Positions 17,029 to 63,466 of a stretch of 64,000 bases of DNA are shown in pieces. A program made the translations under genes and the position numbers. This DNA comes from a virus. The stretch lies in IMG/VR virus record IMGVR_UViG_3300045988_171958, positions 230,492-294,491 of that record, one strand, 5' to 3'. Every line of letters begins with the position of its first letter. The stretch's first letter is position 1. Under the pieces are notes generated by a model. That model saw only the letters and a list, made by a program, of their open reading frames with translations. It ran no database searches and was not told where the DNA came from.

Positions 17029-17718
17029 TTATTCACTTACAAATGATGTTTTTGAATTCATTTCATCTATGGTATCTGATATCGCTTTAGAACACTTCAA
17101 TATAGATGGACATAAACTTACAGTATAAGGATTTCCATTAGCTGCATTATTCAATTCATCTAATCCAGCCTTCAAATCTGACAACAATTTGTATAGTTTA
17201 TTTCCTCTAACTATTGGGTCTTCACATTTTTCTGTTAAACCAACAAATACTTTTGACCCTCTTATAGATATTTCAGTACCATTAGATTTGCTTTCTATAT
17301 CCCCGGCTTGATTTATCTGGGTTTGAGCATGTTCGCCTATTCTAGTTACAAATCCTTGGTTGCCTGTATAGAACATCTGAGCACCAACACTCTTACCAGA
17401 TCTTGACACTAATACATCATAATCAAAATCTTGTTGAGCAGCAGTAGTATTGATGTTTGTTTCCCACATTGTAATATAATAATATTCATATTCATTTGTG
17501 GAATCATGCAATATCCATACTTTTTGTCCCTCTATGCATTTAGAGACACGTTGATATCCTGATCCACTTGTAAATGGAGCAATCCAAAACATATCTTCTT
17601 CATGCATAGAGGCATTATTAAACCAACCAGGAACTACAGCTTTGATTCGACCCATTTTCTTTGGATCATCAGCAGTCACTACAACTCCAGGTCTTATTTC
17701 ACAATTACTCAGTTTCAT
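17029..17718 (-). CDS. putative baseplate spike OB-fold protein (gpV / gp5 N-domain-like)
   Basis: IRPGVVVTADDPKKMGRIKAVVPGW...MFWIAPF...GQKVWIL resembles the phage_base_V signature G-V-x-DP-x-GR-hK-V-x-P...W..P...G..V. Confidence 0.45.
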   Translation of the reverse strand: MKLSNCEIRPGVVVTADDPKKMGRIKAVVPGWFNNASMHEEDMFWIAPFTSGSGYQRVSKCIEGQKVWILHDSTNEYEYYYITMWETNINTTAAQQDFDYDVLVSRSGKSVGAQMFYTGNQGFVTRIGEHAQTQINQAGDIESKSNGTEISIRGSKVFVGLTEKCEDPIVRGNKLYKLLSDLKAGLDELNNAANGNPYTVSLCPSILKCSKAISDTIDEMNSKTSFVSE

Positions 17719-18439
17719 CTGATAAATTATCTATATCATCTTTAGAGAAGATAATGGTAAACTTACCCTTTTCCATTTTCTCTTTATATCTATTTTGTCC
17801 AAATGTTTTATCACAACCAAGACATACTGCTTTGACAACTTTCTTACCAACAACAAACAATGATGGGAAAAGTGTTACTGTATCACCTTCATTATCATAA
17901 ATGAACCAAGAATCTCCTTCATCAATTGCTGCATTAAATTCTTTTTCAAATTTACCACATATATCTTTTACTTGATCTATAACATCATCTGTTATTCCAA
18001 CTTTCTTAATATATTCATTCTTTGATATTTCAGCCTTCATGTGTGCCTTGAACATACCAATAATTTCTTTTGGATCTTTATTAGACCAATTTTCTTTATT
18101 GAATATTTTATGGAAATCAGCATTTGATGATGCATAATCTATAGGGGTTATTTCAAACAAATCTTTTGTATTGCGAACTCCTCTTCTTCTTATCTGTCCA
18201 TTATCTATAATCTTGGATAAAGCTTCCAAGTTAGATTTTTCAGTACCAGTTGTTGAAATCACATATAATGACTTGTTAGTACCAAGTACTTTCTTTACGG
18301 ATCTGTTCCATTTTGTGATTCTTGTCTTCTTCAAACCAATGTTTGTAAATATTGGTGTTAAATCACCTACTTCTTTTGCATTTCCTGTAATATCTGACTT
18401 AGATATTGATTCTTCTATAAATTCTACTAATGATTTCAT
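17705..18439 (-). CDS. hypothetical protein with CTS-like N-terminal tag (MKSLVEFIEE)
   Basis: 244-aa ORF directly downstream of the portal gene. Its N-terminus matches the shared tag family. Confidence 0.6.
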   Translation of the reverse strand: MKSLVEFIEESISKSDITGNAKEVGDLTPIFTNIGLKKTRITKWNRSVKKVLGTNKSLYVISTTGTEKSNLEALSKIIDNGQIRRRGVRNTKDLFEITPIDYASSNADFHKIFNKENWSNKDPKEIIGMFKAHMKAEISKNEYIKKVGITDDVIDQVKDICGKFEKEFNAAIDEGDSWFIYDNEGDTVTLFPSLFVVGKKVVKAVCLGCDKTFGQNRYKEKMEKGKFTIIFSKDDIDNLSDETE

Positions 18440-18454
18440 TTGACTTTTTATATT

Positions 18455-20239
18455 TTACATTTCTCCAGATCCGCCTTCAGCTGAATTGTCCGGTTGTACA
18501 TCTCCCATCATTTCTGAATCTCCTCCAGCATCTTCTGATCCATCATTTTCCATTCCTGCATCTTCTGAATCTGAATCCATTCCTGACATTTCTTCTTCAC
18601 CATTCTCTTCTTCCTCAGATTCTGCATCACCCTTTTCTTGCTTCTCTAACCATTTGCATTTTTGGTTGTATTCAAAATCAGCATCAGACATCTTCAGATA
18701 TCTTTCAAGTAAGAATCTCATAGAGAAATAGCTATCTTCATTTCCTTCAGCATCAGTTGTAGTGAATGTATCTTTAAGCATACCAATTGTTTCAAGACGT
18801 TTGTTGGTAACTTCAAGATCCATCATTTCAGTAAATTGATTGTAAGAATTGTATCTGAATATGATAGCATCCAATACTCTCTTGTCATTCTTCATCTCTG
18901 GAATTGAGAGAGCAACTTGAATCTGAATAGGTTTGATGATTACCATAGAGAATACATTTCTAAGTCTGTCAACAAATCTACCAAAGTTTATTTCATCTCT
19001 AAGAGTTTGAGTTGGATCAGTTCCAAACCAAGCAGCAGCATTTTCTTTGTCAAATCTGCTTTCTGGTATCTTAGACATCTTATATAGCTTAGAAAGATAG
19101 TACTTAAGCTGTTCACTATCATTAAGGCTTGGACCTTGGTCAACAAGTGTCTCTATTTCCGGCTTACCATTTTCATTTTCAGGCATCCAATATTCTTTAT
19201 TGAATGGAAGATTAGTTCTGCCATTTACTTTAAGTTCACCAGTTTCTGTATTGAAGTCTATATCTTCTTTATATCTAGCCATAGCAGAATTCAGAGTCTG
19301 CATACCTTTTGCTCTGTTCATACCAGCTACAGGTATAGTGAACATTGTCTTAAAGCTGGCTTGAGTTACAGTCCAGATAAGTTGTGCTTGCTCTATGATT
19401 CTGTATATGTTGAATGGTCGAATCAGACGTTCAAGATATGATTGTCTATCTATTACTCCACTATCTTCATACTTGATATATATTACTTGAGAATCAAGCA
19501 TGATACGTTCCTGTCCAATCACATCTTTGAACTGTACCCAATATTGTATGCCATTGTCAATAACACGAGTAATAGTAGCTGGATCTATAGGAATGATACC
19601 AATGATTGTATGAGGGTTTTCTATGTTGTCATATACAATTTCATAAGCTATTACTCCATCTATCAGCCATCTTTTGAATTGGTCCCAAGCTTTGTTTTTC
19701 CAATCAAGAAGCATATATATCTTATAGAAGGTTGTATCTACACAGTTCTTTATCTCTTCTATATGATTTTCATTCAATTGTTGCAGTACACTTGGTTCAA
19801 TATAAGGTTCTCCAATATAGACATCATTATCATCATAAACTATACATTCGTTAGCCATGATATCCAATATATCTTCTATTTCTGGATTCATAGCCATCTT
19901 TCTCAGAACATCTCTTTTCTGTTCAAGAGTCTTTTCTCTAAATGGTTTGTCTTCTTCTGGCTTCTGCTTCCAGTTATCCATTATACCAGCATACAAGTTA
20001 GAAGTCATTACTCCAATATCTTTAGGTTGCATCAACTTGTCTGCTGGTACCGCTTTCATGTTCTTTATAACATCAGAAGTCCAGTTCATACCATAATGAC
20101 TGAGCTTATACAGAATTTTTGCAAGATGACCAGGTTCTCTTACCTGCATCTGGTTTTGCTGTATAGGCATCATATCATTAGCTTGTTCATATATAGTTTT
20201 ATTTCCTTCTAATACGTTACTTAAGTTACCAAATATCAT
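18455..20239 (-). CDS. portal protein, T4 gp20-like
   Basis: Stretches colinear with gp20 as I recall it: NPEIEDILDIMANECIVYDD, FKRWLIDG, SYLERLIRPFNIYRIIEQAQLIW, KEYWMPENENGKPEIETL and RDEINFGRFVDRL. Acidic C-terminal tail. Confidence 0.8.
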   Translation of the reverse strand: MIFGNLSNVLEGNKTIYEQANDMMPIQQNQMQVREPGHLAKILYKLSHYGMNWTSDVIKNMKAVPADKLMQPKDIGVMTSNLYAGIMDNWKQKPEEDKPFREKTLEQKRDVLRKMAMNPEIEDILDIMANECIVYDDNDVYIGEPYIEPSVLQQLNENHIEEIKNCVDTTFYKIYMLLDWKNKAWDQFKRWLIDGVIAYEIVYDNIENPHTIIGIIPIDPATITRVIDNGIQYWVQFKDVIGQERIMLDSQVIYIKYEDSGVIDRQSYLERLIRPFNIYRIIEQAQLIWTVTQASFKTMFTIPVAGMNRAKGMQTLNSAMARYKEDIDFNTETGELKVNGRTNLPFNKEYWMPENENGKPEIETLVDQGPSLNDSEQLKYYLSKLYKMSKIPESRFDKENAAAWFGTDPTQTLRDEINFGRFVDRLRNVFSMVIIKPIQIQVALSIPEMKNDKRVLDAIIFRYNSYNQFTEMMDLEVTNKRLETIGMLKDTFTTTDAEGNEDSYFSMRFLLERYLKMSDADFEYNQKCKWLEKQEKGDAESEEEENGEEEMSGMDSDSEDAGMENDGSEDAGGDSEMMGDVQPDNSAEGGSGEM

Positions 20240-20279
20240 GTATCTTACATTACTATTGCTTATATAAAAATATAGAGAA

Positions 20280-20310: not shown

Positions 20311-20346
20311 CTTTATATTACAAAACAAATAATATATCATAATAAA

Positions 20347-21262: not shown

Positions 21263-21991
21263 TTAATCATAAGAAGAGTCCTCTTTATCTTGCCAATCAT
21301 CAGGTAAGTTTAAAATATCTGTCCAACCAAGCATTATATCAATAATACTACTACCAGGACCATCCCAATAAAGATCATCATCTGTGTATTCATCATTCAT
21401 TACATTATCCATGAATTCATCACTATCATAGAATTTCTCACCACTTTTTCTAGCATATTTTACAGCATCTTTAATATTGTCAAATGATTTAACTATATAG
21501 CTAGCATCAAAGTCTTCATAGTCAAAATACGCAGAACCTAAAAGACCAAGCAAGTCTGATAGTGTACCAATATGCAAACATTGATGATATTCATCTTTGT
21601 AAATATAGAATTTTGCCTTAGGAACTTTGACATCTTTCCATTTTACAAATTTAAATGCTCCATCATCACTGCCACTTGTAATTTGTTTTAATACTGGGAA
21701 TTTGATTGTACTTACTTTAGAAGCTGGTTCCGCTTTTGCAAGAGCTTTCATAGCTGGATTATTAGCTGTCATATCTTTGACAGTAGCAACTACTTTACCA
21801 CAGTTCTTAGCATCAGGACCAGGTTTCCAACCTTTAAGCTCCTTTTCAAGAGCCTTACCAGCAGCAACAGCAAATCGGTTTGCTTGTGAATTTCTACCTT
21901 TCTCTCTGGCAGCCTTTGAAGCACGACCAAGCAATTCAGAACTAAGCTCCATAATCAATGCTTCATTCAAATACTGACTTAAATTTTTCAT
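21263..21991 (-). CDS. hypothetical protein with CTS-like tag (MKNLSQYLNE)
   Basis: 242-aa ORF with basic Ala/Lys-rich N-half and acidic C-half. A single minus-strand gene between plus-strand islands. Confidence 0.55.
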   Translation of the reverse strand: MKNLSQYLNEALIMELSSELLGRASKAAREKGRNSQANRFAVAAGKALEKELKGWKPGPDAKNCGKVVATVKDMTANNPAMKALAKAEPASKVSTIKFPVLKQITSGSDDGAFKFVKWKDVKVPKAKFYIYKDEYHQCLHIGTLSDLLGLLGSAYFDYEDFDASYIVKSFDNIKDAVKYARKSGEKFYDSDEFMDNVMNDEYTDDDLYWDGPGSSIIDIMLGWTDILNLPDDWQDKEDSSYD

Positions 21992-22708: not shown

Positions 22709-23977
22709 ATGAATTATTCATTTTTAAATAATTTTCAACCATTTGTTGTAAAGTTCATAGATGATATTTGCATACCTAAATCTTGTAGAGGAAAATATCT
22801 TCTATGTATAAATGCAATGGGTATCAAATGGTTTGAAGAAAATTACATAACACTAGAATACGGTGATGGTTTTATTGAAGGTGAGGTTCTAGGTCCTAAG
22901 TATCTGATGCTTGAGGATAGTGGAGCTAACAAGTTTGACATGCCTAGAATTTATGTACCAATTACAAAGGAGTTGATTGATAATGATACTTCAGAATTAG
23001 GAAAATTCTTAATTAAAGCACTTACAGACAATAGTGTATATGGTACTGGTATAGAAGGTTTTAGACCTAGTAAAAACTATTACTTGAATGAAACATTATA
23101 CAAATGGTGTACTAGAACAAAAGACCATACTGGTAATGATATTCAATCATTAGCAGAAGAAGATGATGACATATATTTACCCGACTATCTCTATTATGAT
23201 AGAGAAAATGACAAACCTAAAATAACATCATATTTTGAAGAATTGTCTGATAATGAGAAGAAAAGCATTGACTTGAATTTCTTCTTCAATAAGAATGAAA
23301 TATCAGATTTGAAGTTTACTGAAGATGATTTCTATTTCTTTCCACAAACTTTCTTCAAAATCATATTAAAGTATACAACTATAACAGAAGAAAACAGACA
23401 GGCAGTACCAAATAATGTTTATGATGTTGTACAGAAGTATTTTGTTAATCATAAAAATGATGAAGCAACAAAACTGTTACAGACTATCATGAATACCAGT
23501 ACAGATGGTACTGATTTGCCTTCTACTATTTCTACTTGCAATTCTTGTACTAACCAATATAATCTATTAAGTGGAAGTTCAAATATAGGTGAAAAGAGTT
23601 GTCTAGAAAAGTATAGAGATGCTATGGATTCATGGTTGAAGATCATGTTGGGTGATTTAGTATATTACAATTCTTGGATGACAGTAAATGAGAACAATAC
23701 TAAATATCCTAATTATGATTTGATAGATTTGTTGATAGAATTTCTGAATGAATATATCAAGTACAACAACTTCCCATCCAAAGAACAGAATAGCATAACT
23801 AATTTCAATTGCCCATCATTAGATAGTTCTTATGATGATAGTGATTGTATTAAAAGTACAATCATGAACTATATTAAAGTTCTAGAATGGGTAAAGAAAT
23901 GTGAAACTGTAAAGAACAGAAATAAAATAAAGGTATATGGTAGAGATTTTGCTAATTACCTTTTAACATATTTTTAA
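22709..23977 (+). CDS. hypothetical protein
   Basis: I moved the start to ATG 22709, because the track N-terminus is read through the structured element. 422 aa, Cys-containing, no motif recognised. Confidence 0.6.
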   Translation: MNYSFLNNFQPFVVKFIDDICIPKSCRGKYLLCINAMGIKWFEENYITLEYGDGFIEGEVLGPKYLMLEDSGANKFDMPRIYVPITKELIDNDTSELGKFLIKALTDNSVYGTGIEGFRPSKNYYLNETLYKWCTRTKDHTGNDIQSLAEEDDDIYLPDYLYYDRENDKPKITSYFEELSDNEKKSIDLNFFFNKNEISDLKFTEDDFYFFPQTFFKIILKYTTITEENRQAVPNNVYDVVQKYFVNHKNDEATKLLQTIMNTSTDGTDLPSTISTCNSCTNQYNLLSGSSNIGEKSCLEKYRDAMDSWLKIMLGDLVYYNSWMTVNENNTKYPNYDLIDLLIEFLNEYIKYNNFPSKEQNSITNFNCPSLDSSYDDSDCIKSTIMNYIKVLEWVKKCETVKNRNKIKVYGRDFANYLLTYF

Positions 23978-23999: not shown

Positions 24000-24389
24000 A
24001 TGAAAAGTTTAGTAGAAACATTGAATGAATCACTAAATATCAATGAAAGTAAAGAAAAGATGCTTAGATTCGAATTTGGTGACCTAGATCATGCAGATGA
24101 GACTATCAAATCTATTGAAGATCTTGCTAATAAGAATTCTGTGTATTCAGAAAAAATTGATGGTGGTATCAAGATTAAAGCTAATGATTCCAATAAGGAT
24201 AAGTTAGATTCTATCCAAGATGTACTTCAACAATATGTACAGAAAATGCAGGATGATGATAAAGCAAATCAAGATGATGTAAAGTCATTAGCAAATCAAT
24301 TGAATAAGTTGAGTGACTTTATTGAATCAGAAGATGACGATGATAAAGAAGATAAAGAAAATAAAGAAGATAATGAAGAAGGAGAATAA
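24000..24389 (+). CDS. small highly acidic protein with CTS-like tag (MKSLVETLNE)
   Basis: 129 aa. The C-terminal third is almost entirely Asp/Glu/Lys (SEDDDDKEDKENKEDNEEGE). Confidence 0.6.
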   Translation: MKSLVETLNESLNINESKEKMLRFEFGDLDHADETIKSIEDLANKNSVYSEKIDGGIKIKANDSNKDKLDSIQDVLQQYVQKMQDDDKANQDDVKSLANQLNKLSDFIESEDDDDKEDKENKEDNEEGE

Positions 24390-50728: not shown

Positions 50729-51028
50729 ATGAAAACACTCTCGAAATTATTAGAAGAAAAAATGATCCAGTCTAATCCAGACAAATTGGATATGGACTGG
50801 ATCAATAATGATAGACCAGTTATTACAAAGTCTGGTTATGAAGTAAAGATAGATTCAGTAGATTATAAAGAAATACCAAACCAGTTACACGGTAAAGTAT
50901 TCTTTTCAGAAGGACCTGTTGATGGATGGGTATGGGATGAAACTGGTAAATGCATTACTTGTAAAGACAGATATGGTAATGGATATAGACCAGGTGATGA
51001 TGAAACGTTGTTGAAGAATAATGATTAA
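50729..51028 (+). CDS. hypothetical small protein with CTS-like start (MKTLSKLLEE)
   Basis: 99-aa ORF. Confidence 0.45.
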   Translation: MKTLSKLLEEKMIQSNPDKLDMDWINNDRPVITKSGYEVKIDSVDYKEIPNQLHGKVFFSEGPVDGWVWDETGKCITCKDRYGNGYRPGDDETLLKNND

Positions 51029-52310: not shown

Positions 52311-52645
52311 TTATCCTCTCATAAAATCATTATATGATATAATTGTTGGGCCAAGTTTGATAGTATTGCCTTTTCCTCTAATAACAATATCAAATTCACC
52401 AACATCACCATCATCTTTCGAAGTTACAGTTAAACCATCTGTCTTCTTAAGCCAAGCAATAGCAGCTTTTCCTGTAGTTAAAGGTTTTGAATAAACCCAA
52501 CCATCATCAATAGCATCAATCAATTCTGATTCATCGATAGGATCATCACTACCTTCACCGAGTAAAAATCTTAATACATCTGTACCTTTTTGATTTTTTA
52601 GTACTTCCTTAGATTCTGTCAATAAGGATTCTAATAAACTTTCAT
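52311..52645 (-). pseudogene. CTS-tagged small gene disrupted by 1-nt deficit in an A-run (or TTG-initiated at 52622)
   Basis: ATG 52645 reads ATGAAAGTTTATTAG (stop). With A4 instead of A3 it would read MKSLLESLLTESKEVLKNQ..., joining track ORF 52311-52622. The paralogous junction at 53178 has ATGAAAAGT. Confidence 0.5.
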
Positions 52646-52706
52646 ATATATTCTTTTTTTTTGTTACATACTAGAACCATCTGTTCTGGTTATTCCTAAG
52701 TTAGAG
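52629..52706 (-). repeat. duplicated gene-junction segment, copy 1 (partner 53161-53243)
   Basis: About 59 nt identical apart from one T/A-run indel. It spans the CTS start, a T9/A9 tract and the GGTTCTAGTATGTAA gene end. Flanks are diverged. Confidence 0.8.
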
Positions 52707-52795
52707 TTTGAACAGCAATAATGTAATATTTTTCCGGCATTCTCATATTCTGCTTAATAATTTCTACAAATACCTTTGCGGCTTTTTACTTTATC
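52664..52795 (-). pseudogene. decayed partial duplicate of gene 53197-54321
   Basis: 52711-52795 aligns with ~53690-53772 (DKVKAAK.F.EI.KQNMRMPE.YY) with a frameshifting extra A. 52664-52710 aligns with the C-terminus (TRTDGSSM stop). About 450 nt is deleted internally. Confidence 0.6.
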
Positions 52796-52800
52796 ATTAT

Positions 52801-53178
52801 TTAGTTAGATGGTTTCAATGTGGCACTTGTTGGATTAAAGTTAAAATTAATTGTACCAAATTTCTTATCTTTAATAGTAAATTGTGCAGTAAAACCATAT
52901 TTAGCTTCATCAAATTTAACAGATATTGGTTGATTAAAGTTTGATTGAATGATCGATGCTAAACCATCCTGATCATAATCTTTATGTGTTAGTTTTTTAA
53001 TAGTATTATTAAGTTCTACATCATCCAATAAATCACCACATCTTGGTGCTAAATCTCCGTCTTTTGCAAGATCATCGCAATCTTCATCAAAATACCAATT
53101 GAAAAAATCTTTTACTGTAGATTTTACTGTTCTTGATTCAAATAATGCGATATTTAAACTTTCTAATAAACTTTTCAT
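52801..53178 (-). CDS. hypothetical protein with CTS-like tag (MKSLLESLNIALFE)
   Basis: 125-aa ORF. Confidence 0.55.
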   Translation of the reverse strand: MKSLLESLNIALFESRTVKSTVKDFFNWYFDEDCDDLAKDGDLAPRCGDLLDDVELNNTIKKLTHKDYDQDGLASIIQSNFNQPISVKFDEAKYGFTAQFTIKDKKFGTINFNFNPTSATLKPSN

Positions 53179-53196
53179 ATATATTCTTTTTTTTTG

Positions 53197-54321
53197 TTAC
53201 ATACTAGAACCATCTGTTCTCATAATTCCTGAGTTAGATAGAGAATTATCTGCTTGATTAGCAGCTACTTGTGATGGTTTATCAGTTCTTTGAGGTGTAT
53301 TGATACCTTGTCCATTATCATCTTTATTCTTTTGCTCAGTATCTTGATCTTTATTATTTTCTTGGCCATTATCATTATTCTCATCTTTATTATCAGAATT
53401 ATCAGAGTCTGATTTCAAATCATCTGCAGTACTTGGATCTTCAGCTATAGTAAAGCAACAAGCATCACCAGTTCTTCTTACACCGATGAATCCAAGCATG
53501 TCATCAATAACTCCTTTCAATTCTTGATCCATTCCATTTGGATTATCAGCATCATTTACCCAGATACCATTATCACCTAAACCATAAATATTTACCAGGG
53601 TTTTTGTAACAGTAGCTGTCTTACCAAATGGTTTTCTTACATCGTGTTTGTAACGTAAAGCAACTGATTCATTGCCATCTTCATCACGAACCGCAGTTAT
53701 ATAATAATTCTCTGGCATTCTCATATTTTGCTTAAGAATTTCTGCAAATGCCTTAGCTGCTTTTACTTTATCGTTACTTGCTAACAACTGTCTTATATCT
53801 TTCTTGGTTGTATCTTCAATTTCTTGATCCGGTTGCCATGCATCTTCCTTTATCTCACCAAACTGATTATATTCTATATCACCAATATGTAGTTGTTTTT
53901 GTTCATGGCAAGCAATCTTTGGTAATGATTCACATGAACTATTATCACATGGCCCATTATATCCATAAGATTGCTGAATATCTGAAGGACAAAAATATAA
54001 GAAATATTCTTCACCAACAGGAACAATCTTTATGCATGACAAACCTTGCATTGATACATAAGTGAAAAGAGAAGTTCTGTCATTCCATACATTTGTATAT
54101 ATGGCAGTTCTAACATCTTCTTCAGAATGCCATAATGATGATGTACATTTTAAAGAGAAATTATCTTCTGCCTTTGTAACAACCATAGAAAGTTGAGATG
54201 AAAAGAAATTTCTTACATTTGTTACTATATTATCCACAGGAGTCAAATGATTAGTTACACCAACCTTATTTCCCAATGGTTGGTTATCAAATGACTCCTT
54301 TATCATTGACAATGTCTTCAT
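53197..54321 (-). CDS. hypothetical protein with CTS-like tag (MKTLSMIKE), Asn/Asp/Gln-rich C-terminal tail
   Basis: 374-aa ORF with low-complexity tail DSDNSDNKDENNDNGQENNKDQDTEQKNKDDNGQ. Confidence 0.55.
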   Translation of the reverse strand: MKTLSMIKESFDNQPLGNKVGVTNHLTPVDNIVTNVRNFFSSQLSMVVTKAEDNFSLKCTSSLWHSEEDVRTAIYTNVWNDRTSLFTYVSMQGLSCIKIVPVGEEYFLYFCPSDIQQSYGYNGPCDNSSCESLPKIACHEQKQLHIGDIEYNQFGEIKEDAWQPDQEIEDTTKKDIRQLLASNDKVKAAKAFAEILKQNMRMPENYYITAVRDEDGNESVALRYKHDVRKPFGKTATVTKTLVNIYGLGDNGIWVNDADNPNGMDQELKGVIDDMLGFIGVRRTGDACCFTIAEDPSTADDLKSDSDNSDNKDENNDNGQENNKDQDTEQKNKDDNGQGINTPQRTDKPSQVAANQADNSLSNSGIMRTDGSSM

Positions 54322-54347: not shown

Positions 54348-55835
54348 TTAAAAATATATTCTACTGTTTTTTGGTGGATTTACTTTATAATATAAGTCCA
54401 TGCTAGTAAGTTGCTTTCCAATTGTTGTTTCTTTATCTGGATATCCCCGATAAAGCTTGTTTTGCATATATTCCTCTAATGAATTGCAACCAACATAATT
54501 ATGTAAGCAACATACTTCTTCTGGAATTTCTTTAGAATCTATATAATACAAAGGAGTTTCTCTAGTAAAGTTTCTGATAGGTAATCCACACTTCATTATT
54601 GTTTTGAAAGCATTATTCTGATAAGAAGATCTGTTACCATCATTGTATACTATAATGCTCTTTATCTTCAGTATTTTAGAATCAATATTGTCTTGTATAG
54701 TTTTTCTTAATGAACTGCAATTGATTTCTTCATCCCCATCTATGAATATGCAATGGGTAAAGTCATTCAGATAATTATTGTAAACATCACTATAAGCTTC
54801 AGATAATATTTCATGTTCTCCTCTATATTTAGAAATCAATTCTACATTAGAAAAATCAAGAATATCTTTAGGATCCTCTCCAGATATATCATTATTGTCA
54901 ATAACAAAAACTTTAGAAACACCAGAAGATATTATCTTAGAAATTTGTTCATTCAAATGATAGTTTTCATTCTTAACTATCATTATAGCAGCTATCTTTA
55001 TCTTATTCACATGAGGTAAATTAGATTGATAACCTATTCTTTCTGATAGATATTCATTCTCATTCTTTATTTCACATTCTGATATGACATCTATATCTTT
55101 AAAATCATCAAGAATATTTTGCCAAAATCTTATATTCTTATCAAAAGCATGAATAAACAGTGGCAACTTATGCTTTGTCATTTCATAAACAATATCTGCA
55201 TTCATATCATAAGCAAATGAGGTAGCAACATCAAAATTTGGTTTTCTGAAATCCCAAAGCATTGGCACTAACTGAGCAAAGTACAAATCTTCATATATAG
55301 AATACATGTTGCTGTTCATTCTGTTATGCTTATCAATATCTTCTTTATTCTCTCTAATGAATTCTCCAGTTGGATCAGTTACTTCTATCATAGTAGAAAT
55401 ATTTCTTAAGCTAACTCCCCCGTTACCAACAGCAGGAACATTGAACCATCTTGCATTCTGTGCTATGATAGGTGCACCAATATAGTCATAATTCATATCA
55501 ATATATTCTTTAAGACTTCCTCCAATACAATATCCATCAGTTTGATATATCAAAGCATATTCATGTTCTTTGAAAGTATTCCAAAATTCATAACTTTCAA
55601 GAAGATTAGAATAAGATAAAGTTGATAAGAAATAATCATAAGAGAATGGTCTCAATATTACATCATGGTCAACATATCTTTTCCATTCTGCTGTACCTAA
55701 ATTTTCTGGATATATGAAATAGACTTCATAATCAGAAAAATCCTTCAAGTTTTTTGACAATGATTCAAGACTGAACTTATCTAATAATCCAGGAGTTTCT
55801 TTATATATTGGTATGATAATGCAATTTTTTTTCAT
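54348..55835 (-). CDS. two-domain putative glycosyltransferase (DUF5672-like N-domain + GT2-like C-domain)
   Basis: N-half: YDYIGAPII...AVGNGGVSLRN matches the DUF5672 signature as recalled. C-half: IAAIMIVKNENYHL...VFVIDNNDISGED...IFIDGDEE is a GT-A-like nucleotide-binding and DxD pattern. Confidence 0.5.
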   Translation of the reverse strand: MKKNCIIIPIYKETPGLLDKFSLESLSKNLKDFSDYEVYFIYPENLGTAEWKRYVDHDVILRPFSYDYFLSTLSYSNLLESYEFWNTFKEHEYALIYQTDGYCIGGSLKEYIDMNYDYIGAPIIAQNARWFNVPAVGNGGVSLRNISTMIEVTDPTGEFIRENKEDIDKHNRMNSNMYSIYEDLYFAQLVPMLWDFRKPNFDVATSFAYDMNADIVYEMTKHKLPLFIHAFDKNIRFWQNILDDFKDIDVISECEIKNENEYLSERIGYQSNLPHVNKIKIAAIMIVKNENYHLNEQISKIISSGVSKVFVIDNNDISGEDPKDILDFSNVELISKYRGEHEILSEAYSDVYNNYLNDFTHCIFIDGDEEINCSSLRKTIQDNIDSKILKIKSIIVYNDGNRSSYQNNAFKTIMKCGLPIRNFTRETPLYYIDSKEIPEEVCCLHNYVGCNSLEEYMQNKLYRGYPDKETTIGKQLTSMDLYYKVNPPKNSRIYF

Positions 55836-55853: not shown

Positions 55854-56492
55854 TTAGGGTTTGAAGTGTCTCCAATAAGTCATTATATTAGTAAGAGTAT
55901 CCTTTGAAAAATGACCTTCTGTGTACATACCTGTTGGTAATAATCTTGTAGGTATGATATGAGTTTGGCTTCTCAACATAGGTATGTACATTCTTACTGC
56001 AAAACCTATTTTATATTTCTTACATAATCTCTTAAGTACTGGCCAATTGATGTATTTATTTACTTTATGTACAGGTTCATTGAATTGCAATTGATAATAT
56101 TGTTTGAATACTTCATATATTGAATTCATTACACGTGTTCTTGCAAATGGTGGAAAGTAATGGATATTTACACCAATCTCACGAATATTATTCTTTTTGT
56201 CTTTTGCTAAACCAAAAAATACAGTCATAGGAGTTTTGTCATAATACTCCAAATCTTCTGCTGTCTTAGGTGTGGCATAATTGAATACTACTATCTGTCC
56301 AGGAAGAATATACTTAGTAGTAGCTTTAGTATTTATGAGAATTTCTCTATAAGCTAAACGAGAACGCAAATTGATAGGTCTTCGTTTTAATGGGTGTTCA
56401 TTAACAGCATCATCTAACCTAAAATTCTTAATTTCTTCTTGTTGATATATCCAATTATCTATTTGTTGTAATCGTTGATTCTGTGTAGGCAT
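55854..56492 (-). CDS. hypothetical protein; positional candidate for gp2-like DNA end protector
   Basis: 212 aa, immediately downstream of the gp4-like gene (T4 genes 2 and 4 are adjacent). GVNIHYFPPFAR is vaguely gp2-like from memory. Weak. Confidence 0.3.
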   Translation of the reverse strand: MPTQNQRLQQIDNWIYQQEEIKNFRLDDAVNEHPLKRRPINLRSRLAYREILINTKATTKYILPGQIVVFNYATPKTAEDLEYYDKTPMTVFFGLAKDKKNNIREIGVNIHYFPPFARTRVMNSIYEVFKQYYQLQFNEPVHKVNKYINWPVLKRLCKKYKIGFAVRMYIPMLRSQTHIIPTRLLPTGMYTEGHFSKDTLTNIMTYWRHFKP

Positions 56493-56510: not shown

Positions 56511-56963
56511 TTACTGGAAGAAACGTTCTGTTACCAATATGAATTTCATATTATGTTCTTTAGCAAAGGTCATACAAGCTTTCCATTTGTCACAATTCTT
56601 TATCCATTGTTCTTTTAACCAAACAGAATCTTGTGGTCTAGGTTTCTTAGTTTGAGCATAAGGTTTTACTTCTACTATTGTCTGATGACCATCAGCATTC
56701 TCTATAATGAAATCTGGATAATAGTTTGCCATACCTTTCTTTAATCTGCTATAATATGGTATGGCTAAAGATTCAGATACCCATCCAGTAATGCTAGATT
56801 GATTTTCTACATATTGAATGAACTTCATTTCCAACCCAGATCTTGCAATTACTGGCTCTTTTTCCTTGCATTTTTTGAATTTTTCTGGTGAGATGAGTGT
56901 TTGATGGTAGTAACTGTTCTTTCTTGGTTTTACATTTTTTATGAAGTTATCTGACTTTGCCAT
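56511..56963 (-). CDS. head completion nuclease, T4 gp4-like (PD-(D/E)xK)
   Basis: 150 aa, the same size as gp4. Motifs SGLEMKF, ...IPYYS..., YYPDFIIEN...IVEVKPYAQT and KWKACMTFAKEHNMKFILVTE. Confidence 0.6.
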   Translation of the reverse strand: MAKSDNFIKNVKPRKNSYYHQTLISPEKFKKCKEKEPVIARSGLEMKFIQYVENQSSITGWVSESLAIPYYSRLKKGMANYYPDFIIENADGHQTIVEVKPYAQTKKPRPQDSVWLKEQWIKNCDKWKACMTFAKEHNMKFILVTERFFQ

Positions 56964-57118: not shown

Positions 57119-57430
57119 ATGATTATGATTATGAATACAAATACAAATAATATTATCAAGGTGAACATTCATGTTTTAAACAAATTTACTAACAAACATG
57201 AAATTGTTAAAGTTTCTGTAAGAGCTAATAGTGTTATGGAACTTTGTGAAAGACTTGCCGGAGTAAATGGAAGAAATCTTCACTATCTTCTTGCTAGACC
57301 AGAGCTTTTTAACAGAACAAGATATTTCTTTTCATGCTTTACTAAAGCATTTAAGAATTACCTTTATTATGAAAAGGAAATGGGACCATGCCACAGATTT
57401 GAATATGACGGAATCAGTCTTGATAAGTAA
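57119..57430 (+). CDS. hypothetical small protein
   Basis: 103-aa ORF behind the duplicated promoter. Confidence 0.5.
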   Translation: MIMIMNTNTNNIIKVNIHVLNKFTNKHEIVKVSVRANSVMELCERLAGVNGRNLHYLLARPELFNRTRYFFSCFTKAFKNYLYYEKEMGPCHRFEYDGISLDK

Positions 57431-57463
57431 GTATCAATTATTAATAAAACAAAATATTTTTGA

Positions 57464-59014
57464 ATGAAGTCATTATTGTCAATGATATTTGAAGCTGGTA
57501 TACCATCAAAGATTATCAAGAAGAAAACAAATATCATAAAGAGAACAAATCAATATAATTTTGGTGATAAGAATGATACTGTATCTGGTACATATAACCA
57601 AGAAGATGAATATTTTAAGAATAATTCACAAGGTTATATCATAGATAGGAAAACAGGTACTAAACATGATGTAGTTGATGCATCATATAATAGTGATAGT
57701 GGTGCCATAGCGGGTGGTGCTATAAATTGGGTTCTCTATATTTCAAATGTTGGCCCTATTAAGAAATTGAAAGTATCAGGTTATCAAGGTATCATGTCAA
57801 GCCCATCAACAATTACTGCTAGTCATATCATAAGTCATATTAGTGATGGATATTATCTGGAAGATTATCTTGCAATTCATAAAAGGGATATTGCTAAAGG
57901 TGATAGAGATAAGATATCAGATATCATAAGTAATGGTAATGCTGATGCAAAGTCTTACAGAGATGCTAAAGAATCTAGAATGCAAGAAAAGAAAGTAAAG
58001 TTCTTTCAAAATTATGGTTGCTTAAGCAGATCATTTGGACATGTTGGATTTATTGTAAAAGATGATGGTACAGTTAAGTTATATCAGAATACACTTTTAG
58101 CACATAATTCATTGAAGTCTAAAGAAAGTGATTCATATAATGCTAGATATGTAGACAATCCAAATAGTAAATCTGTTGCTGAGGCTGCAACCAATACAGC
58201 TGCTGAAAATGTTGCAGAATTGTTGAAGCAAGAAATCAATCCTGATTTGAAGGAACTTAAGGGTATAAGTGGTATTGTTGCATTCAAGAAGAAAAGAGAT
58301 TCAGGTGAATTAGAAGATATTACTTATGAGCAAATTTTCTATAATATCAAATCTAAGAAATTTGTCATGCTTAATAATCTTGGTGAATATGATTTGATGG
58401 GAAATACTACAAGGTTTAATCCAAAAGAATCTACAGTAGAAGTTGTACCTTACATTCAAAAATTGAATATCCCAACAGATAGTAGTACATCAGAATTTGG
58501 TAAGGATTTGAAGCTTAAAGCGGTTAAAGAATGGGACAAGTCAAGAAAGAAAGGTAGAAGAGAATATATTGATGCAAACTACAGAAAATTCTTAAATGCT
58601 TTTAATGGAGTTCAAACTAAAGGTAAAGCACAGTCTAAAGCACGTGATGAGTATGATGAAGAAACTGAAAGTAAGAAGAAAGGATATTTGCCATTTGAAT
58701 TCTATGCTCAGTTCTGTAAAGGTGGTAAAGTTGTAGGTATAGATAAAGATGATAAGATTGAAAAAGCCAAAGATAAAGCTGCAGTAAAAACAAAGACAAT
58801 TAAAGGCGGTCAAGAAAAGATGGATGCTTGGCATAATGGCACTCGTAAACAGAATGTAAAGAGTTGTTCAGATGATAAGCTTAAAGCATATTATAAGATT
58901 TGTATAGATTCTGGTTACAGGGAGGAAGCTGAAAAGTTAAGAAGTGAAGCTGATTCTCGTGGTTTGAAGTTGAATGAATCAATATCACTTAGTACTTATG
59001 CTGAATTATTTTAA
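57464..59014 (+). CDS. hypothetical protein with CTS-like tag (MKSLLSMIFE)
   Basis: 516-aa ORF with Lys-rich C-terminal third. No motif recognised. Confidence 0.6.
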   Translation: MKSLLSMIFEAGIPSKIIKKKTNIIKRTNQYNFGDKNDTVSGTYNQEDEYFKNNSQGYIIDRKTGTKHDVVDASYNSDSGAIAGGAINWVLYISNVGPIKKLKVSGYQGIMSSPSTITASHIISHISDGYYLEDYLAIHKRDIAKGDRDKISDIISNGNADAKSYRDAKESRMQEKKVKFFQNYGCLSRSFGHVGFIVKDDGTVKLYQNTLLAHNSLKSKESDSYNARYVDNPNSKSVAEAATNTAAENVAELLKQEINPDLKELKGISGIVAFKKKRDSGELEDITYEQIFYNIKSKKFVMLNNLGEYDLMGNTTRFNPKESTVEVVPYIQKLNIPTDSSTSEFGKDLKLKAVKEWDKSRKKGRREYIDANYRKFLNAFNGVQTKGKAQSKARDEYDEETESKKKGYLPFEFYAQFCKGGKVVGIDKDDKIEKAKDKAAVKTKTIKGGQEKMDAWHNGTRKQNVKSCSDDKLKAYYKICIDSGYREEAEKLRSEADSRGLKLNESISLSTYAELF

Positions 59015-59044: not shown

Positions 59045-59377
59045 ATGAAATCTATAGTAGAATCTATTAATGAAGCTAAAAATTTTTTCTTTGCTTTGGT
59101 TGTAAAATCTTCTGATGATAAAGTTAAAATATTTAGTGTGAAGACAAACTATAATGGGGTAGATGATTTTGCTTCAGATATAGCAGCAAATGACGATGAT
59201 GCAGATACAATTGAATCTTGGTTCAATGTAGGTGTACAGTATTCTCGTTATGATGGTTTTAATGATAAGTTCAAGAAATTTCTTGAAGGTGTAAAAGTAA
59301 CAAAGGATAATTTCTATACTATTATGCCTATTCAAAATCTGAAGACAAAACCTAATGGAGTTTACAATTTTAATTAA
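59045..59377 (+). CDS. hypothetical small protein with CTS-like tag (MKSIVESINE)
   Basis: 110-aa ORF. Confidence 0.55.
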   Translation: MKSIVESINEAKNFFFALVVKSSDDKVKIFSVKTNYNGVDDFASDIAANDDDADTIESWFNVGVQYSRYDGFNDKFKKFLEGVKVTKDNFYTIMPIQNLKTKPNGVYNFN

Positions 59378-59431
59378 TAAACGAATATGAAAGACGAAAT
59401 TGATTTTTAAACAAATTAAACTTTAAAATAA

Positions 59432-59803
59432 ATGAAATCAATAAGTGATTTTTTAGTAAATGAATCAAATAATAAAAATGGATATGTAGTTTGTTATGGT
59501 GAATCACGTGATGATGAATTAGATGCTCTATTGATAGAAACTGATTATAATTTGGATAAGATGGGAGATCTTATTTATAAGGGCAATTCTAATGGAGATT
59601 TAGCTAAGTCATACTTCAAATCATTATTGAATAGCGGTTTAAGTTCTAGTGCACCTAATAGAAATCTATATTCAGATGGATTCATTAAATATCTTAAAGA
59701 TAATGGCATTACAAATGATTATATAGTTTCTATAATGACACTTAAATCATATTTGCAGTATTTTAAGAAAATGCCTAAGTCAGGAACAGAATTTAATCTT
59801 TAA
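59432..59803 (+). CDS. hypothetical small protein with CTS-like tag (MKSISDFLVNE)
   Basis: 123-aa ORF. The overall shape resembles ORF 59045 (both are ~110-125 aa, with ...NGV/GITND... then Y..I/IMP/T). Confidence 0.55.
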   Translation: MKSISDFLVNESNNKNGYVVCYGESRDDELDALLIETDYNLDKMGDLIYKGNSNGDLAKSYFKSLLNSGLSSSAPNRNLYSDGFIKYLKDNGITNDYIVSIMTLKSYLQYFKKMPKSGTEFNL

Positions 59804-59807
59804 TATA

Positions 59808-61232: not shown

Positions 61233-61239
61233 AAATATC

Positions 61240-61268: not shown

Positions 61269-61296
61269 ATCATGTCAAATAATAAATATTAAAATT

Positions 61297-61566
61297 ATGA
61301 ATATTATAAATATTATGAGTTTCTTTAGTATTACAATGTTTATCTTTTTAGGTTTTGTAGTTGTACTTATGATAGATATAATCATAGATAAATACTTTAA
61401 ACATTATGATAGTAGTACCAGAAATACTTTCTATTGTACTAAACAGACTTTAGCAAAGCGAAGAATGCAGAAAGATCCTTGGATTTGGTATGGTACTTAT
61501 GTTGATAAATATGGTCATAAGAAATGGTTCAAGGAAGCTGCAAGAAAGAGATTTATTGTTGATTAA
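61297..61566 (+). CDS. small single-TM membrane protein (holin-like candidate)
   Basis: 89 aa. N-terminal hydrophobic MSFFSITMFIFLGFVVVLMIDIII followed by a basic tail. Confidence 0.4.
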   Translation: MNIINIMSFFSITMFIFLGFVVVLMIDIIIDKYFKHYDSSTRNTFYCTKQTLAKRRMQKDPWIWYGTYVDKYGHKKWFKEAARKRFIVD

Positions 61567-61629
61567 TCAAACAAGTATTGAAATTAAGAGATTAATAACA
61601 TCACTGAAGTGATATTAAGAACAGAAGTT

Positions 61630-61929
61630 ATGGAACAGAATATTGTAAAGACTGGTTTGACAAGAAGTAAGAATTGTAAGAAGGCAATAGCTACATATCC
61701 TAATTATCGAGTTTTTTGGAGATCTGGATTCGCTTATCGTGGCGCTGGAGAACGTGAAATCAAACGAGAAGGACAACGTAAGATTTTATGTCCTGGTGGA
61801 TTTTTCTTAGGAACATTTGATGATGAACTTCAGCTCTGCTTTGATTGGGCTTGTGCACAAGATATGGTTATCGATCATGATAAGAAGGAGATTCATATCA
61901 ATGGATTTAGTGAAAATGATATGTATTAG
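61630..61929 (+). CDS. hypothetical small protein
   Basis: ATG 61630 (MEQNIVKTG) is preferred over GTG 61609. Confidence 0.45.
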   Translation: MEQNIVKTGLTRSKNCKKAIATYPNYRVFWRSGFAYRGAGEREIKREGQRKILCPGGFFLGTFDDELQLCFDWACAQDMVIDHDKKEIHINGFSENDMY

Positions 61930-61940
61930 ATGATTAGAAT

Positions 61941-62135
61941 ATGGAAAAGAAAGTTTATGTATACCCAAACCCAGTAAATGGTGAATTCATCAAGAATATT
62001 CTCCCATTACTTAAGAAGTATAAAGTAAAAGAAAAAGATATTGATACTATTGCTCTGTCTGTTGAAGAATCTTATCATATTGGGTGGTCAAGCGGATATC
62101 ATGATTGTGAAATGGATATTGATGAATCTATATAA
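61941..62135 (+). CDS. hypothetical small protein
   Basis: 64-aa ORF, tightly packed. Confidence 0.4.
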   Translation: MEKKVYVYPNPVNGEFIKNILPLLKKYKVKEKDIDTIALSVEESYHIGWSSGYHDCEMDIDESI

Positions 62136-62147
62136 GAATTTAATAAT

Positions 62148-62612
62148 ATGGACTTGATGGACATTTATAATATAAACAAAAAGTTAGCACAAGAAAAATT
62201 GAATTCAGATAAGCCAATCAAATGGATTGCTATTTATAATAATAGTAAATTAGAAATCAGAGCAGGTTATGTTTTGTACCATAAAGATCTTCGTAAGAAG
62301 GATGAACCATTACCTATTGGTGGTGGAATATTGAAAATAGAAAGTCAATCTGATGCAACTTGGAAGCTATCACTTGGTGGTAAGTCTGATGATTTTGGTG
62401 CTTGTGATTTGCTTTCATTTAAGAATGAGGATATTGACTTATATCCATTGATTGATTTCTTATGTTGGACATTATATTTTGATGAATATGTAAAACCATT
62501 TGATGTTGATATCAGATTCTATCCATATTTTGTAAAGAGCTTACCTAGCACTGATGAATTCAATTTGACTGATACATTCAGAAAGCAATACGAAAAATAT
62601 CTAGATGTTTAA
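62148..62612 (+). CDS. hypothetical protein
   Basis: 154-aa ORF. Confidence 0.5.
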   Translation: MDLMDIYNINKKLAQEKLNSDKPIKWIAIYNNSKLEIRAGYVLYHKDLRKKDEPLPIGGGILKIESQSDATWKLSLGGKSDDFGACDLLSFKNEDIDLYPLIDFLCWTLYFDEYVKPFDVDIRFYPYFVKSLPSTDEFNLTDTFRKQYEKYLDV

Positions 62613-62615
62613 TAG

Positions 62616-63029
62616 ATGAGTAGAAAGATAGAATTTCAAGACTTGAAGTTTGTTTGCGGATGCAAAATATTGTCGCCTAAAGGTTATTCTGCAATCACAT
62701 TATTTGGTACAGTGTATACAAGAAAGAGTGCAGATGTAGTTTGGAGATATCTTCAGACGAATAGAGGTAGGATTTGGGCACATCATGAAGCAATACATAT
62801 CTATCAGGCAGATACATTTGCTTATATGAAATGGTTTTGGTTTTATTTTATATATATTTGTGAGTTCTTGAAGGCTTGGCCATTCTTCATGTCTTGGAAG
62901 CAAGCATATAAGACAATCGTATTTGAATATGAAGCATATATGAAACAAGATGATTTGTATTATGTAAAATCAGCTTGGTGGGATTATATACGTACAAATA
63001 AAGTAAGAAAAACAATATCGTTCGGTTAA
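62616..63029 (+). CDS. hypothetical protein with HExxH motif
   Basis: WAHHEAIHIYQ (HExxH) followed by an aromatic-rich hydrophobic stretch. Confidence 0.4.
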   Translation: MSRKIEFQDLKFVCGCKILSPKGYSAITLFGTVYTRKSADVVWRYLQTNRGRIWAHHEAIHIYQADTFAYMKWFWFYFIYICEFLKAWPFFMSWKQAYKTIVFEYEAYMKQDDLYYVKSAWWDYIRTNKVRKTISFG

Positions 63030-63061
63030 TTATTTTTAATCATAAAAAAAAAAATAGTTTT

Positions 63062-63466
63062 ATGAAAAGTCTAGTAGAATGTCTGTTAGAAGAAGGTCTT
63101 GTCAAATTTGACAATAAAGAAATTGTTTCCAAAGAAGAAGCATTTAATTTATTAAGTACTAAAAAAGGTTATCATTTAGCATTTAAAGGTGTTAAATTTG
63201 ATAGTGGTGTCTTTTATATGTTAAAAGGTAAGAAAGGACAACTTGAAATATATAAATCTACTGATAATCATGACAAACCATGTTTTAATTGGTATTGTGC
63301 TGTTGGTGGTAATGATGATAGTGGATTTTTATGTTATTTAGATGCAGTGAAGTCTATTGATGAATTATTTAGCAAACTCATTGATAAATCTGTAGTTGTA
63401 TCAATTGTAAATACACCTAGTCTAGCAAAAGCAAAAGATTCTGATAAAATTGAGATATATCATTAA
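63062..63466 (+). CDS. hypothetical small protein with CTS-like tag (MKSLVECLLEE)
   Basis: 134-aa ORF preceded by an A11 tract. Confidence 0.55.
   Translation: MKSLVECLLEEGLVKFDNKEIVSKEEAFNLLSTKKGYHLAFKGVKFDSGVFYMLKGKKGQLEIYKSTDNHDKPCFNWYCAVGGNDDSGFLCYLDAVKSIDELFSKLIDKSVVVSIVNTPSLAKAKDSDKIEIYH

Follow-up and report, generated by a model that had tools for sequence, protein, structure and literature searches.

Unrelated proteins of a large uncultured phage share an N-terminus that resembles the capsid-targeting sequence of bacteriophage T4

Why should eleven proteins with unrelated bodies begin with the same kind of sequence? The question is raised by a 64,000-nucleotide stretch of virus DNA (IMG/VR record IMGVR_UViG_3300045988_171958, positions 230,492 to 294,491), called the window below. 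A sequence-only reading of the window had likened these N-termini, here called tags, to the capsid-targeting sequence (CTS) of bacteriophage T4. From our analysis, the shared N-terminus is probably a T4-type CTS, that is, an amphipathic propeptide of 9-14 residues that would be removed by a prohead protease of the gp21 family. The computational checks which that reading had proposed all turned out in its favour. All eleven tagged open reading frames (ORFs) were recovered on the strands and at the positions reported for them. They are listed with the residue that follows the final Glu (lengths in amino acids, aa; distances in nucleotides, nt; pI, isoelectric point), and each is named below by the window coordinate at which it starts.

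17705-18439, minus strand: tagged ORF of 244 aa, MKSLVEFIEE then S; 15 nt downstream of the portal gene.
21263-21991, minus strand: tagged ORF of 242 aa, MKNLSQYLNE then A.
24000-24389, plus strand: tagged ORF of 129 aa, MKSLVETLNE then S; very acidic (pI 4.28, 28.7% Asp+Glu).
50729-51028, plus strand: tagged ORF of 99 aa, MKTLSKLLEE then K.
52311-52645, minus strand: frameshifted tagged ORF, intended N-terminus MKSLLESLLTE then S.
52801-53178, minus strand: tagged ORF of 125 aa, MKSLLESLNIALFE then S; present on contig CACVDK010000001.1.
53197-54321, minus strand: tagged ORF of 374 aa, MKTLSMIKE then S; C-terminus acidic and of low complexity.
57464-59014, plus strand: tagged ORF of 516 aa, MKSLLSMIFE then AGIPSK; basic, pI 9.2.
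59045-59377, plus strand: tagged ORF of 110 aa, MKSIVESINE then A.
59432-59803, plus strand: tagged ORF of 123 aa, MKSISDFLVNE then S; Val, not Leu or Ile, at P3.
63062-63466, plus strand: tagged ORF of 134 aa, MKSLVECLLEE then G.

In the 52645 copy the frame is lost because one nucleotide is missing from the A-run behind the ATG, so that it reads ATGAAAGT in place of ATGAAAAGT; in two related loci (L210 and L211) the gene is intact and encodes a 111-aa protein that starts MKSLLESLLTESKE. To call the eleven N-termini near-identical, as had been done, overstates their likeness, but the common pattern M-K-[STN]-[LI]-x3-[LIM]-x-E is real, in tags of 9-14 residues. Leu or Ile occupied position 4 in all eleven tags and position 8 in 10 of 11, and Glu stood at position 10 in seven of the eleven, elsewhere at position 9, 11 or 14. 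The L/I-x-E ending that had been claimed for the whole set was found in 10 of 11 tags and fails in 59432, which ends V-N-E. The residue after the final Glu, a feature that the sequence-only reading had not used, was Ser, Ala or Gly in 10 of 11 tags (Lys in 50729) as compared to a background of 18.9% (P = 5e-7). The helical hydrophobic moment of the window tags was 0.29-0.65, as against 0.44 for the T4 tag. The bodies are unrelated, as had been stated: an all-versus-all BLASTP search with the tags removed was empty save for a marginal 59045/59432 pair (E 0.002, in a tiny database).

Enrichment was determined for the 49 ATG-initiated ORFs that lie to the right of position 12700 and have 60 aa or more. 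Of these 49, nine start with MK[ST][LI], where 0.34 would be expected with the frequency of Lys at position 2 (33%) already allowed for, and the same four residues were found at none of 356 internal Met sites. With the MKN variant included, the full pattern gave 10 intact genes, the frameshifted copy being the eleventh. The tag might have proved to be a generic preference of the start region, the outcome that the sequence-only reading had named as fatal to it; that idea was rejected, 38 of the 49 genes having no tag.

Synonymous codons vary within the tags, as had been noticed (Ser AGT, TCA or TCT; Leu TTA, TTG, CTA or CTC; Lys AAA or AAG), and the Ser codons switch between the AGY and TCN families. 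Identity over the 30 nt upstream was 0.41 among tagged genes versus 0.37 among untagged genes, so the DNA there is unconserved, and codon positions 1 and 2 were more alike among the tags (identity 0.56) than was position 3 (0.48). These values make it highly improbable that the tag is a nucleic-acid or translation feature, either an A/U-rich start preference in a host without Shine-Dalgarno sequences or a RegA-type RNA operator. Such a feature would fit the absence of Shine-Dalgarno sequences from the window genes, the Lys (AAA) at position 2 in 33% of genes, and a third-codon-position identity among the tags of 0.48 versus 0.35. It fits poorly with just 11 of ~49 genes being tagged, and with a conserved Glu and following small residue, which are protein features. 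The RNA operator was rejected on the codon switching, the unconserved upstream DNA and the protein-level conservation of Glu and small residue. Because of the enrichment, the varied codons, the unconserved upstream DNA and the small residue after Glu, we conclude that the tag is real, N-terminus-specific and under selection as a protein sequence.

A portal-based scan of viral contigs returned 41 loci with portal identities of 37-99% (related loci are given L or P numbers), six of which are colinear with the window at 90-96% DNA identity. Scanning these relatives for the tag revealed many further tagged genes: in the related loci, 56 of 1352 distinct genes start with MK[STN][LIVMFY]xxx[LIVMF]xE, versus 8 of 8651 internal Met sites. 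The positions that this pattern leaves free were not random in residue among 47 distinct tags, with Tyr or Phe at position 7 in 35, Gln, Glu or Asp at position 6 in 30, and Ala, Ser or Gly at position 11 in 27. The clade consensus is MK[STN][LI]x[QE][YF][IL]xE[AS].

More distant loci carry a 13-residue tag, MKN[LI]K[TS]F[EQ]xF[IV]NE[SA]. Arrays of small genes with MK[TS][LI]xESIIG[RK][KR]GS starts were seen at L041 14163-15678 and 17987-18394 and at L042 14927-16054; in this variant L-x-E occurs only at positions 4-6, and position 10 is not Glu. In a second variant, MKSLxESLFD(x)E, found in L031, L033-L035, L038 and L142, position 10 is Asp, a replacement that in T4 blocks processing and not targeting.

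The pattern derived from the clade is satisfied by T4's own MKTYQEFIAE, and the tag is kept at 20-31% identity; both support the proposed likeness to the T4 CTS. In the genetics of the T4 internal protein IPIII, residues 4 and 7 of the CTS serve targeting and residues 8 and 10 serve processing (PMC9026906), and the conserved positions of the clade tag coincide with these determinants, although in the window itself position 7 is aromatic in just 3 of 11 tags. This residue-by-residue match, and the co-occurrence of the tag with T4-type head genes, make it barely credible that the tag addresses a site other than the capsid, such as the membrane, a secretion route or another compartment built by the phage. 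Short N-terminal signals often serve localisation, and no direct pointer to another destination was seen here. The tag is acidic and amphipathic, and a secretion signal was rejected, since the tag has no hydrophobic core, lipobox or transmembrane segment.

Conservation of the tag on diverging bodies can be followed in single families. Orthologues of 24000 that share 26-31% identity with it begin with either MKSLLQFIKEA or MKTLVEYIKEA. In the 18439 family MKSLVEFI[TEA]E[SA] is retained by homologues as low as 49% in identity, and a homologue in L012 that is 20.6% identical starts MKSLTQYIAES. The 21991 gene is tandemly duplicated in relatives L006, L008 and L010, and a distant homologue in L024 starts MNGLQEYLLEK. 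For the 516-aa family, 61 homologues were found, of which 45 were aligned (22-95% identity). In all 45, the pre-sequence ends in [LIFY]-x-E, the next residue is Ala or Ser and a conserved xKxPS comes after it; the final Glu is at least 90% conserved. The pre-sequence itself may be as short as 5 residues or as long as 13 (MRITE|A, MKLFE|A, MKDLKYILLFE|A, MKSLLSMIFE|A). This is the pattern that would be expected of a conserved protease site.

It could still be that the N-terminus is an ancestry relic of a fast-diverging, locally duplicated family of paralogues, with no role in targeting or cleavage. The duplicated upstream junction of 52645 and 53178, the marginal similarity of 59045 and 59432, and the tandem duplicates and arrays in relatives speak for such a family. 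We nevertheless regard a relic as very unlikely: the tag is conserved while bodies fall to 20-30% identity or to undetectable similarity, the Glu with a small residue behind it is kept in all window tags save one, the tag recurs in phages PAU and MA9V-1 and in T4 with the same positional logic, and the motif tracks T4 head genes across the viral collection (see below).

At the 52645/53178 junction, ~45 nt of upstream DNA are duplicated between the two genes. On the minus strand the duplicated segment (52646-52800 and 53179-53240) consists of the last ~10 codons of the 374-aa gene (..GIMRTDGSSM*), an A-rich spacer and the tag start. The segment has the look of a junction at which cassettes of tagged genes were recombined or duplicated. 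As the cause of the shared tag, a DNA-level recombination cassette was also considered, and was rejected.

A CTS of the T4 type calls for a prohead protease, which the sequence-only reading had said should be sought elsewhere in the genome. The protease and the capsid protein of Tenacibaculum phage PTm1 were used as tblastn queries and neither was found in the window; those genes therefore lie outside it. A search with a protease-domain alignment gave other lineages only, and a capsid-protein alignment retrieved the locus in near-identical contigs. A gp21-family prohead protease is present in the lineage: Peptidase_S77 (PF03420) was detected in L156 at 42.4 bits (cutoff 27), and the protease was also found in P0195 and in many variants, on contigs of ~290-298 kb with 90-96% DNA identity to the window. 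The P0195 protease cluster sits on sibling contigs. The lack of a prohead protease, which the sequence-only reading had named as a refutation, is thus not seen in this lineage, as judged from these relatives.

The protease protein has 525 aa (501 aa in other variants) with Peptidase_S77 at its N-terminus. Compared to T4 gp21 it is 27% identical over 112 residues (E 6e-8), and the alignment spans the catalytic His and Ser motifs, LGEL(N/E)HP and (V/I)SSR(G/A)LGS. Its C-terminal region of ~350 aa is acidic, helical and scaffold-like, with YSPEVQKWIVE[QN] repeated seven times and 21 [LI]xE sites. For the scaffold that was likewise to be sought, this region fused to the protease is a candidate; no gp22 homologue was identified. 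Directly downstream of the protease gene lies a Gp23-type capsid gene (PF07068, 110.9 bits). The capsid protein of this lineage has cleavage-type motifs at residues 18 (MLTE) and 42 (AMFE|A) whose positions are conserved across the clade; the residue-18 motif is also present in T4 (WKPLLE).

The viral contigs were also scanned with a DNA pattern for M-K-[ST/…]-[LF]-x-x-[FY]-I-x-E-[AS], in which Lys was fixed as AAA and Glu as GAA. This form is stricter and T4-like (Phe/Tyr-Ile at positions 7-8), unlike the looser pattern that fits all 11 window tags. Among the matches listed (at least 126), 121 of 126 begin an ORF of at least 50 aa, and 109 have 15 or fewer open codons upstream. Homologues of T4 gp13-gp24 were present at 43 of 120 loci, among the at least 120 loci listed (mean ~9 kb). 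A control of the same base composition, with Lys2 and Glu10 swapped, gave 31 matches in the entire collection, of which two had a downstream ORF of at least 50 aa and none was like an N-terminus, with T4 genes at 2 of the 31 loci. As the matches start ORFs near T4 genes and those of the swapped control do not, the motif marks gene starts in phages of the T4 superfamily. MKTFQEFIAEA, which comes very near to the T4 CTS, is carried by one contig (L223). Between gp20 and gp21, the position of gp67/gp68, many environmental and marine T4-like contigs (e.g. L241 10332-10652) have a recurrent 106-aa protein that starts MKSFKQFISES; its gene position mirrors that of the window's tagged gene just after the portal. 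We consider it evenly balanced whether the T4 CTS is an ancient label of the T4 superfamily as a whole, with its sequence conserved between T4 and huge uncultured phages whose hosts are of the Bacteroidota type.

By portal (33% identity), cultured relatives of this phage include Sphingomonas phage PAU and Chryseobacterium phage MA9V-1. At least 17 PAU ORFs start with MK[ST][LI]xxL[YF]E[SA] and have unrelated bodies; at least 16 lie within 41 kb around the portal, protease and capsid genes (L217, PAU 88356-129858) and one lies elsewhere (L221 9332). They include one ORF annotated 'scaffolding' and two with the GenBank note 'internal capsid protein'; these two notes are the one hint that tagged proteins reach the virion. 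The last residues of the PAU protease are KKLYES. Another PAU protein, gp1, is a sigma factor by annotation and bears the note 'internal capsid vertex protein'.

Next to the portal of MA9V-1 are two ORFs whose N-termini, MKNFFSFINE|A and MKTFTCFINE|A, have the form MK[NT]F..FINEA. The MA9V-1 capsid protein (L219 26063-27784) has WSEFINE|A at residue 24, ending as the MA9V-1 tags do, a motif that would tie the end of the tag to a capsid-maturation cleavage site. In both phages the same kind of tag is found on unrelated ORFs clustered round the portal, protease and capsid genes, whereas the consensus is lineage-specific, that of PAU having 9 residues and ending L-[YF]-E. In 29 kb of PTm1, only two weak tag candidates were found, MKKLYDHISENLVTE and (M)RKLYSVISENFIVE. 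No paper describing the PAU or MA9V-1 tags was found in the literature.

What the tagged proteins do is less readily read from sequence. Nothing above threshold was obtained for the 10 intact tagged proteins with PHROGs and Pfam, and a PDB sequence search with the four largest gave no match. The AlphaFold2 model of the 516-aa protein has a predicted local distance difference test score (pLDDT) of 82, with residues 1-10 below 50 and a short helix predicted at residues 4-11 ahead of a well-modelled body; a Foldseek search of this model against PDB and BFVD gave nothing better than E 0.1. These homology and fold searches showed no match to known anti-defence proteins, and an anti-defence role for the tagged proteins is speculation. 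Among the larger tagged proteins of relatives, two (L141 2926-4610, minus strand, and L152 285-1067) have strong DUF285 (BspA-like repeat) matches, E 5e-81 and 1e-55, and others have weak, sub-threshold matches to sigma-70 regions 2/4, haloacid dehalogenase (HAD) hydrolases and RNA ligase. A 462-aa protein tagged MKSFTEQILEN (L042 16057-17445, minus strand) has sub-threshold matches to sigma-70 regions 2 and 4.

Internal [LI]xE sites in the tagged bodies occur at chance level (1-4 per protein, 0.4-4.5 expected), and therefore the bodies would survive the protease, unlike the scaffold region with its 21 sites. This count bears on an alternative in which capsid entry is accepted and delivery is not: the tagged proteins would be core or scaffold accessories of the prohead, assembly factors that are degraded or expelled after entry. 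The 18439 ORF does occupy the position that gp67/gp68 have in T4, after the portal, as does the 106-aa MKSFKQFISES protein between gp20 and gp21 of marine T4-like contigs; the 'scaffolding' ORF of PAU is tagged, the N-terminus of T4 gp22 is similar, and most tagged proteins are acidic, as are T4 core proteins. With the sites at chance level, however, wholesale degradation is not predicted. The loci are polymorphic, with the 516-aa gene dispensable and an extra tagged gene in relatives, and the DUF285 and weak sigma-70 and HAD matches of relatives' tagged proteins also count against such a role. We hold it to be unlikely for the set.

The polymorphism of tagged loci between strains takes several forms. 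Relative to window positions 57119-59014, the 516-aa gene is mostly deleted in L002 (4972-5560) and L004 (74-662), leaving a 64-aa ORF identical to the C-terminus of the 516-aa protein. Because these two assemblies lack most of the gene, it is dispensable in natural populations. An extra tagged gene, encoding a protein of 68-102 aa, stands between the portal gene and the 18439 orthologue in three relatives.

L008 11804-12010, L009 11803-12111 and L010 11804-12085: extra tagged gene, MKSLLEYITED.

In some variants, a gene of the IS605 OrfB/TnpB type (PF01385, PF07282; L002 957-2171, L210 3576-4790) is inserted between a 495-aa DUF5672 gene and the 374-aa tagged gene.

Upstream of the window genes, the 7-mer ATTTTTA was found on the coding strand in 12 of 48 upstream windows; its reverse complement was found in 2, and shuffling gave a mean of 2.5. 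It mostly lies 29-42 nt before the start, as in the portal gene, three large tail genes, the 150-aa gene by the gp2-type gene, and tagged genes 24000, 54321, 59432 and 63062; in three genes (259, 636 and tagged 50729) it is just 10-18 nt upstream. TATAA or a similar sequence often follows. The copies that precede the portal gene and four tagged genes are as follows.

20265-20271, minus strand: ATTTTTA, 32 nt upstream of the portal gene.
23970-23976, plus strand: ATTTTTA, 30 nt upstream of tagged 24000.
54349-54355, minus strand: ATTTTTA, 34 nt upstream of tagged 54321; would serve the 54321-53178 pair.
59403-59409, plus strand: ATTTTTA, 29 nt upstream of tagged 59432.
63032-63038, plus strand: ATTTTTA, 30 nt upstream of tagged 63062.

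Other tagged genes closely follow genes that bear ATTTTTA. The motif may be a late promoter of the phage, and its distribution weakly suggests that the tagged genes are co-expressed with virion genes.

Comparative evidence leads us to infer a course of core binding, cleavage, capsid retention and injection. The tagged proteins would be produced along with virion proteins, and the tag would dock them on the scaffolding core during prohead assembly. The Peptidase_S77 prohead protease would then cut after the Glu of [LIVF]-x-E, ahead of a small residue; the freed peptide would exit the capsid and the mature protein would remain inside with the DNA. Some tagged proteins probably enter the host at infection, like the T4 internal proteins, and others may belong to the core, as T4 gp67/gp68 do, for example the very acidic 129-aa protein and the product of the gene that follows the portal.

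Several observations weigh against a T4-type CTS. Position 7 is aromatic in just 3 of 11 window tags, one of the tags has V-N-E at its end, and sub-clade variants (MKSLxESLFD..., MKTLxESIIGRKG) do without Glu at position 10. The protease and capsid genes were read in near-identical relatives and not on the window's own contig, and the promoter evidence is a 7-mer in AT-rich DNA. Nine of the eleven tagged proteins are acidic (pI 4.3-6.3) and only the 516-aa protein is basic, while the T4 internal proteins are basic; the tagged set does not have the profile of those proteins (small, basic, DNA-associated). PAU gp70, annotated 'internal capsid protein', is untagged (PAU 1-50 kb was read, with one further tag there). 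No tags were found in 41 kb round the head genes of LR756500 and Lak-B4, and the distribution of the tag is therefore patchy. Finally, the phage is uncultured, so packaging, cleavage and injection are steps that we infer.

The earlier proposal that the set is expanded relative to T4 was not established, because T4 has roughly ten such N-termini (the internal proteins, Alt, gp22, gp24, gp67, gp68 and Inh) and about one third of this genome was examined. The DNA covered comprised the window, 10 kb to its right and the relatives' protease/capsid locus, in part via near-identical relatives. In the T4 record the N-termini include gp22 MLKEQLIAE|A, gp24 MAKINELLRE|S, gp67 MEGLIE|A and Inh MIDKDYIAE|L; those of gp22, gp24, gp67, gp68 and Inh were read here, and those of the internal proteins were taken from the literature, the Alt N-terminus not being read.

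The setting of the tagged genes is that of a T4-type head module in a large phage. The window corresponds to NCBI CACVDK010000001.1 (GCA_902729945.1, 293,853 bp), the record coordinate being the window coordinate minus 2935; window positions 1-2935 wrap round to the end of the linear NCBI record. GC content is ~30%. The first ~4 kb (1-4000) hold short ORFs only, the longest of no more than 87 aa, and 25 tRNA genes are clustered on the plus strand at 4186-11213 with a few ORFs between them (e.g. 7541-8542, 9865-10530). Just past the right end of the window, at L001 10473-10646, MNITF(S/G)SAQELKL repeated three times in tandem makes up a 57-aa ORF. Four untagged genes of the window are of note.

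13291-16089, minus strand: large terminase subunit, 932 aa (PHROG terminase families).
18455-20239, minus strand: gp20-type portal, 594 aa (phrog_213, E 3.6e-75).
55854-56492, minus strand: T4 gp2-type DNA end protector (PF26869 Phage_T4_gp2; 29% identity to the PTm1 DNA end protector).
56511-56963, minus strand: 150-aa protein next to the gp2-type gene (PF08722 Tn7_TnsA-like_N).

The terminase is unusually long at 932 aa. One PHROG terminase family covers residues 67-793 and others match two separate stretches, which suggests that it may contain an inserted element, e.g. an intein or homing endonuclease. The portal N-terminus, MIFGNLSNVLE|G, has a cleavage-type motif at residues 9-12, and the portal may itself shed a short propeptide. 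The gp2-type gene is a head-module marker and adjoins the tag-rich region. The N-terminus of PAU gp134, annotated as a head completion protein, resembles that of the 150-aa protein, which could be the 'gp4' (head completion) mentioned in the sequence-only reading; it is a candidate only. A megablast search of 20 kb of the window against GenBank phages gave no nucleotide-level match. In a portal tblastn search against GenBank phages the closest were LR756500-LR756504 (uncultured huge phages), PAU, PTm1, MA9V (a Chryseobacterium phage) and Lak megaphages, at 29-36% identity, and the host is probably a member of the Bacteroidota.

Most genes of huge uncultured phages lack an assigned function, and a label for the capsid interior would be a cheap and testable way to pick out the proteins that a virion carries. 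If the T4 CTS is an ancient label of the whole superfamily, searching N-termini for a simple motif would show which proteins are packaged, and probably injected, by phages that cannot be cultivated. In these large phages the outcome would then be a polymorphic arsenal of orphans, with sigma-like factors and DUF285 repeat proteins as possible members. Carried proteins are the first effectors, at work ahead of all phage gene expression; T4 has anti-restriction factors among them. A T4 cargo-loading signal conserved far beyond the T-even phages would bear on the evolution of head assembly, and it suggests that T4-style protein-packaging vectors may be feasible in other phage chassis, including phages of gut Bacteroidota.

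Among known systems, T4 is the closest. Its CTS is MKTYQEFIAE, its internal proteins are cut once beside it, and foreign fusions are packaged (PMC8442874). Previous work proposed that the CTS lets T4-like phages load varied proteins, and CTS-like sequences have been described in T-even relatives; no paper extending the CTS to huge phages of this group was found. Both systems have an N-terminal tag of ~10 residues on unrelated proteins, M-K-[ST]-hydrophobic-x-[EQ]-[FY]-[IL]-x-E, that ends [LI]-x-E before a small residue. Both belong to lineages with a gp21-family protease, a gp23-type capsid protein, a gp20-type portal and a gp2 homologue, and in both the loci of tagged genes are polymorphic. 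This phage differs in being distantly related, with a genome of ~294 kb and a host that is probably one of the Bacteroidota. Its lineage has a protease fused to a scaffold-like repeat region, most of its tagged proteins are acidic whereas the T4 internal proteins are basic, and its tags run from 9 to 14 residues with position 7 often non-aromatic.

The phiKZ-like giant phages (phiKZ gp175, SPN3US gp245, 201phi2-1) have propeptides on head and ejection proteins (PMC5694885). There too the protease, a diverged gp21-like enzyme, cleaves behind the Glu of a short motif. Processing affects many of the internal head proteins, and the propeptides are thought to target proteins into the prohead (PMC5694885); all of the cuts follow a Glu (PMC9026906). 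These propeptides, in contrast, are usually ~80-130 residues long with no short shared tag, and the phages lie outside the T4 gp23/gp20 sequence family. The phiKZ-like cleavage motif is S/A/G-x-E.

A likeness can also be drawn to the cargo-loading peptides of encapsulins, in which a short terminal peptide is likewise the address that sends diverse cargo inside an HK97-fold shell. Those peptides are usually C-terminal and attach to the shell protein itself; no protease takes them off, and neither DNA nor injection is involved. Judged against these systems, the one described here appears to be the known system of T4, which occurs in this large, uncultured and only distantly related phage and also widely in the T4 superfamily.

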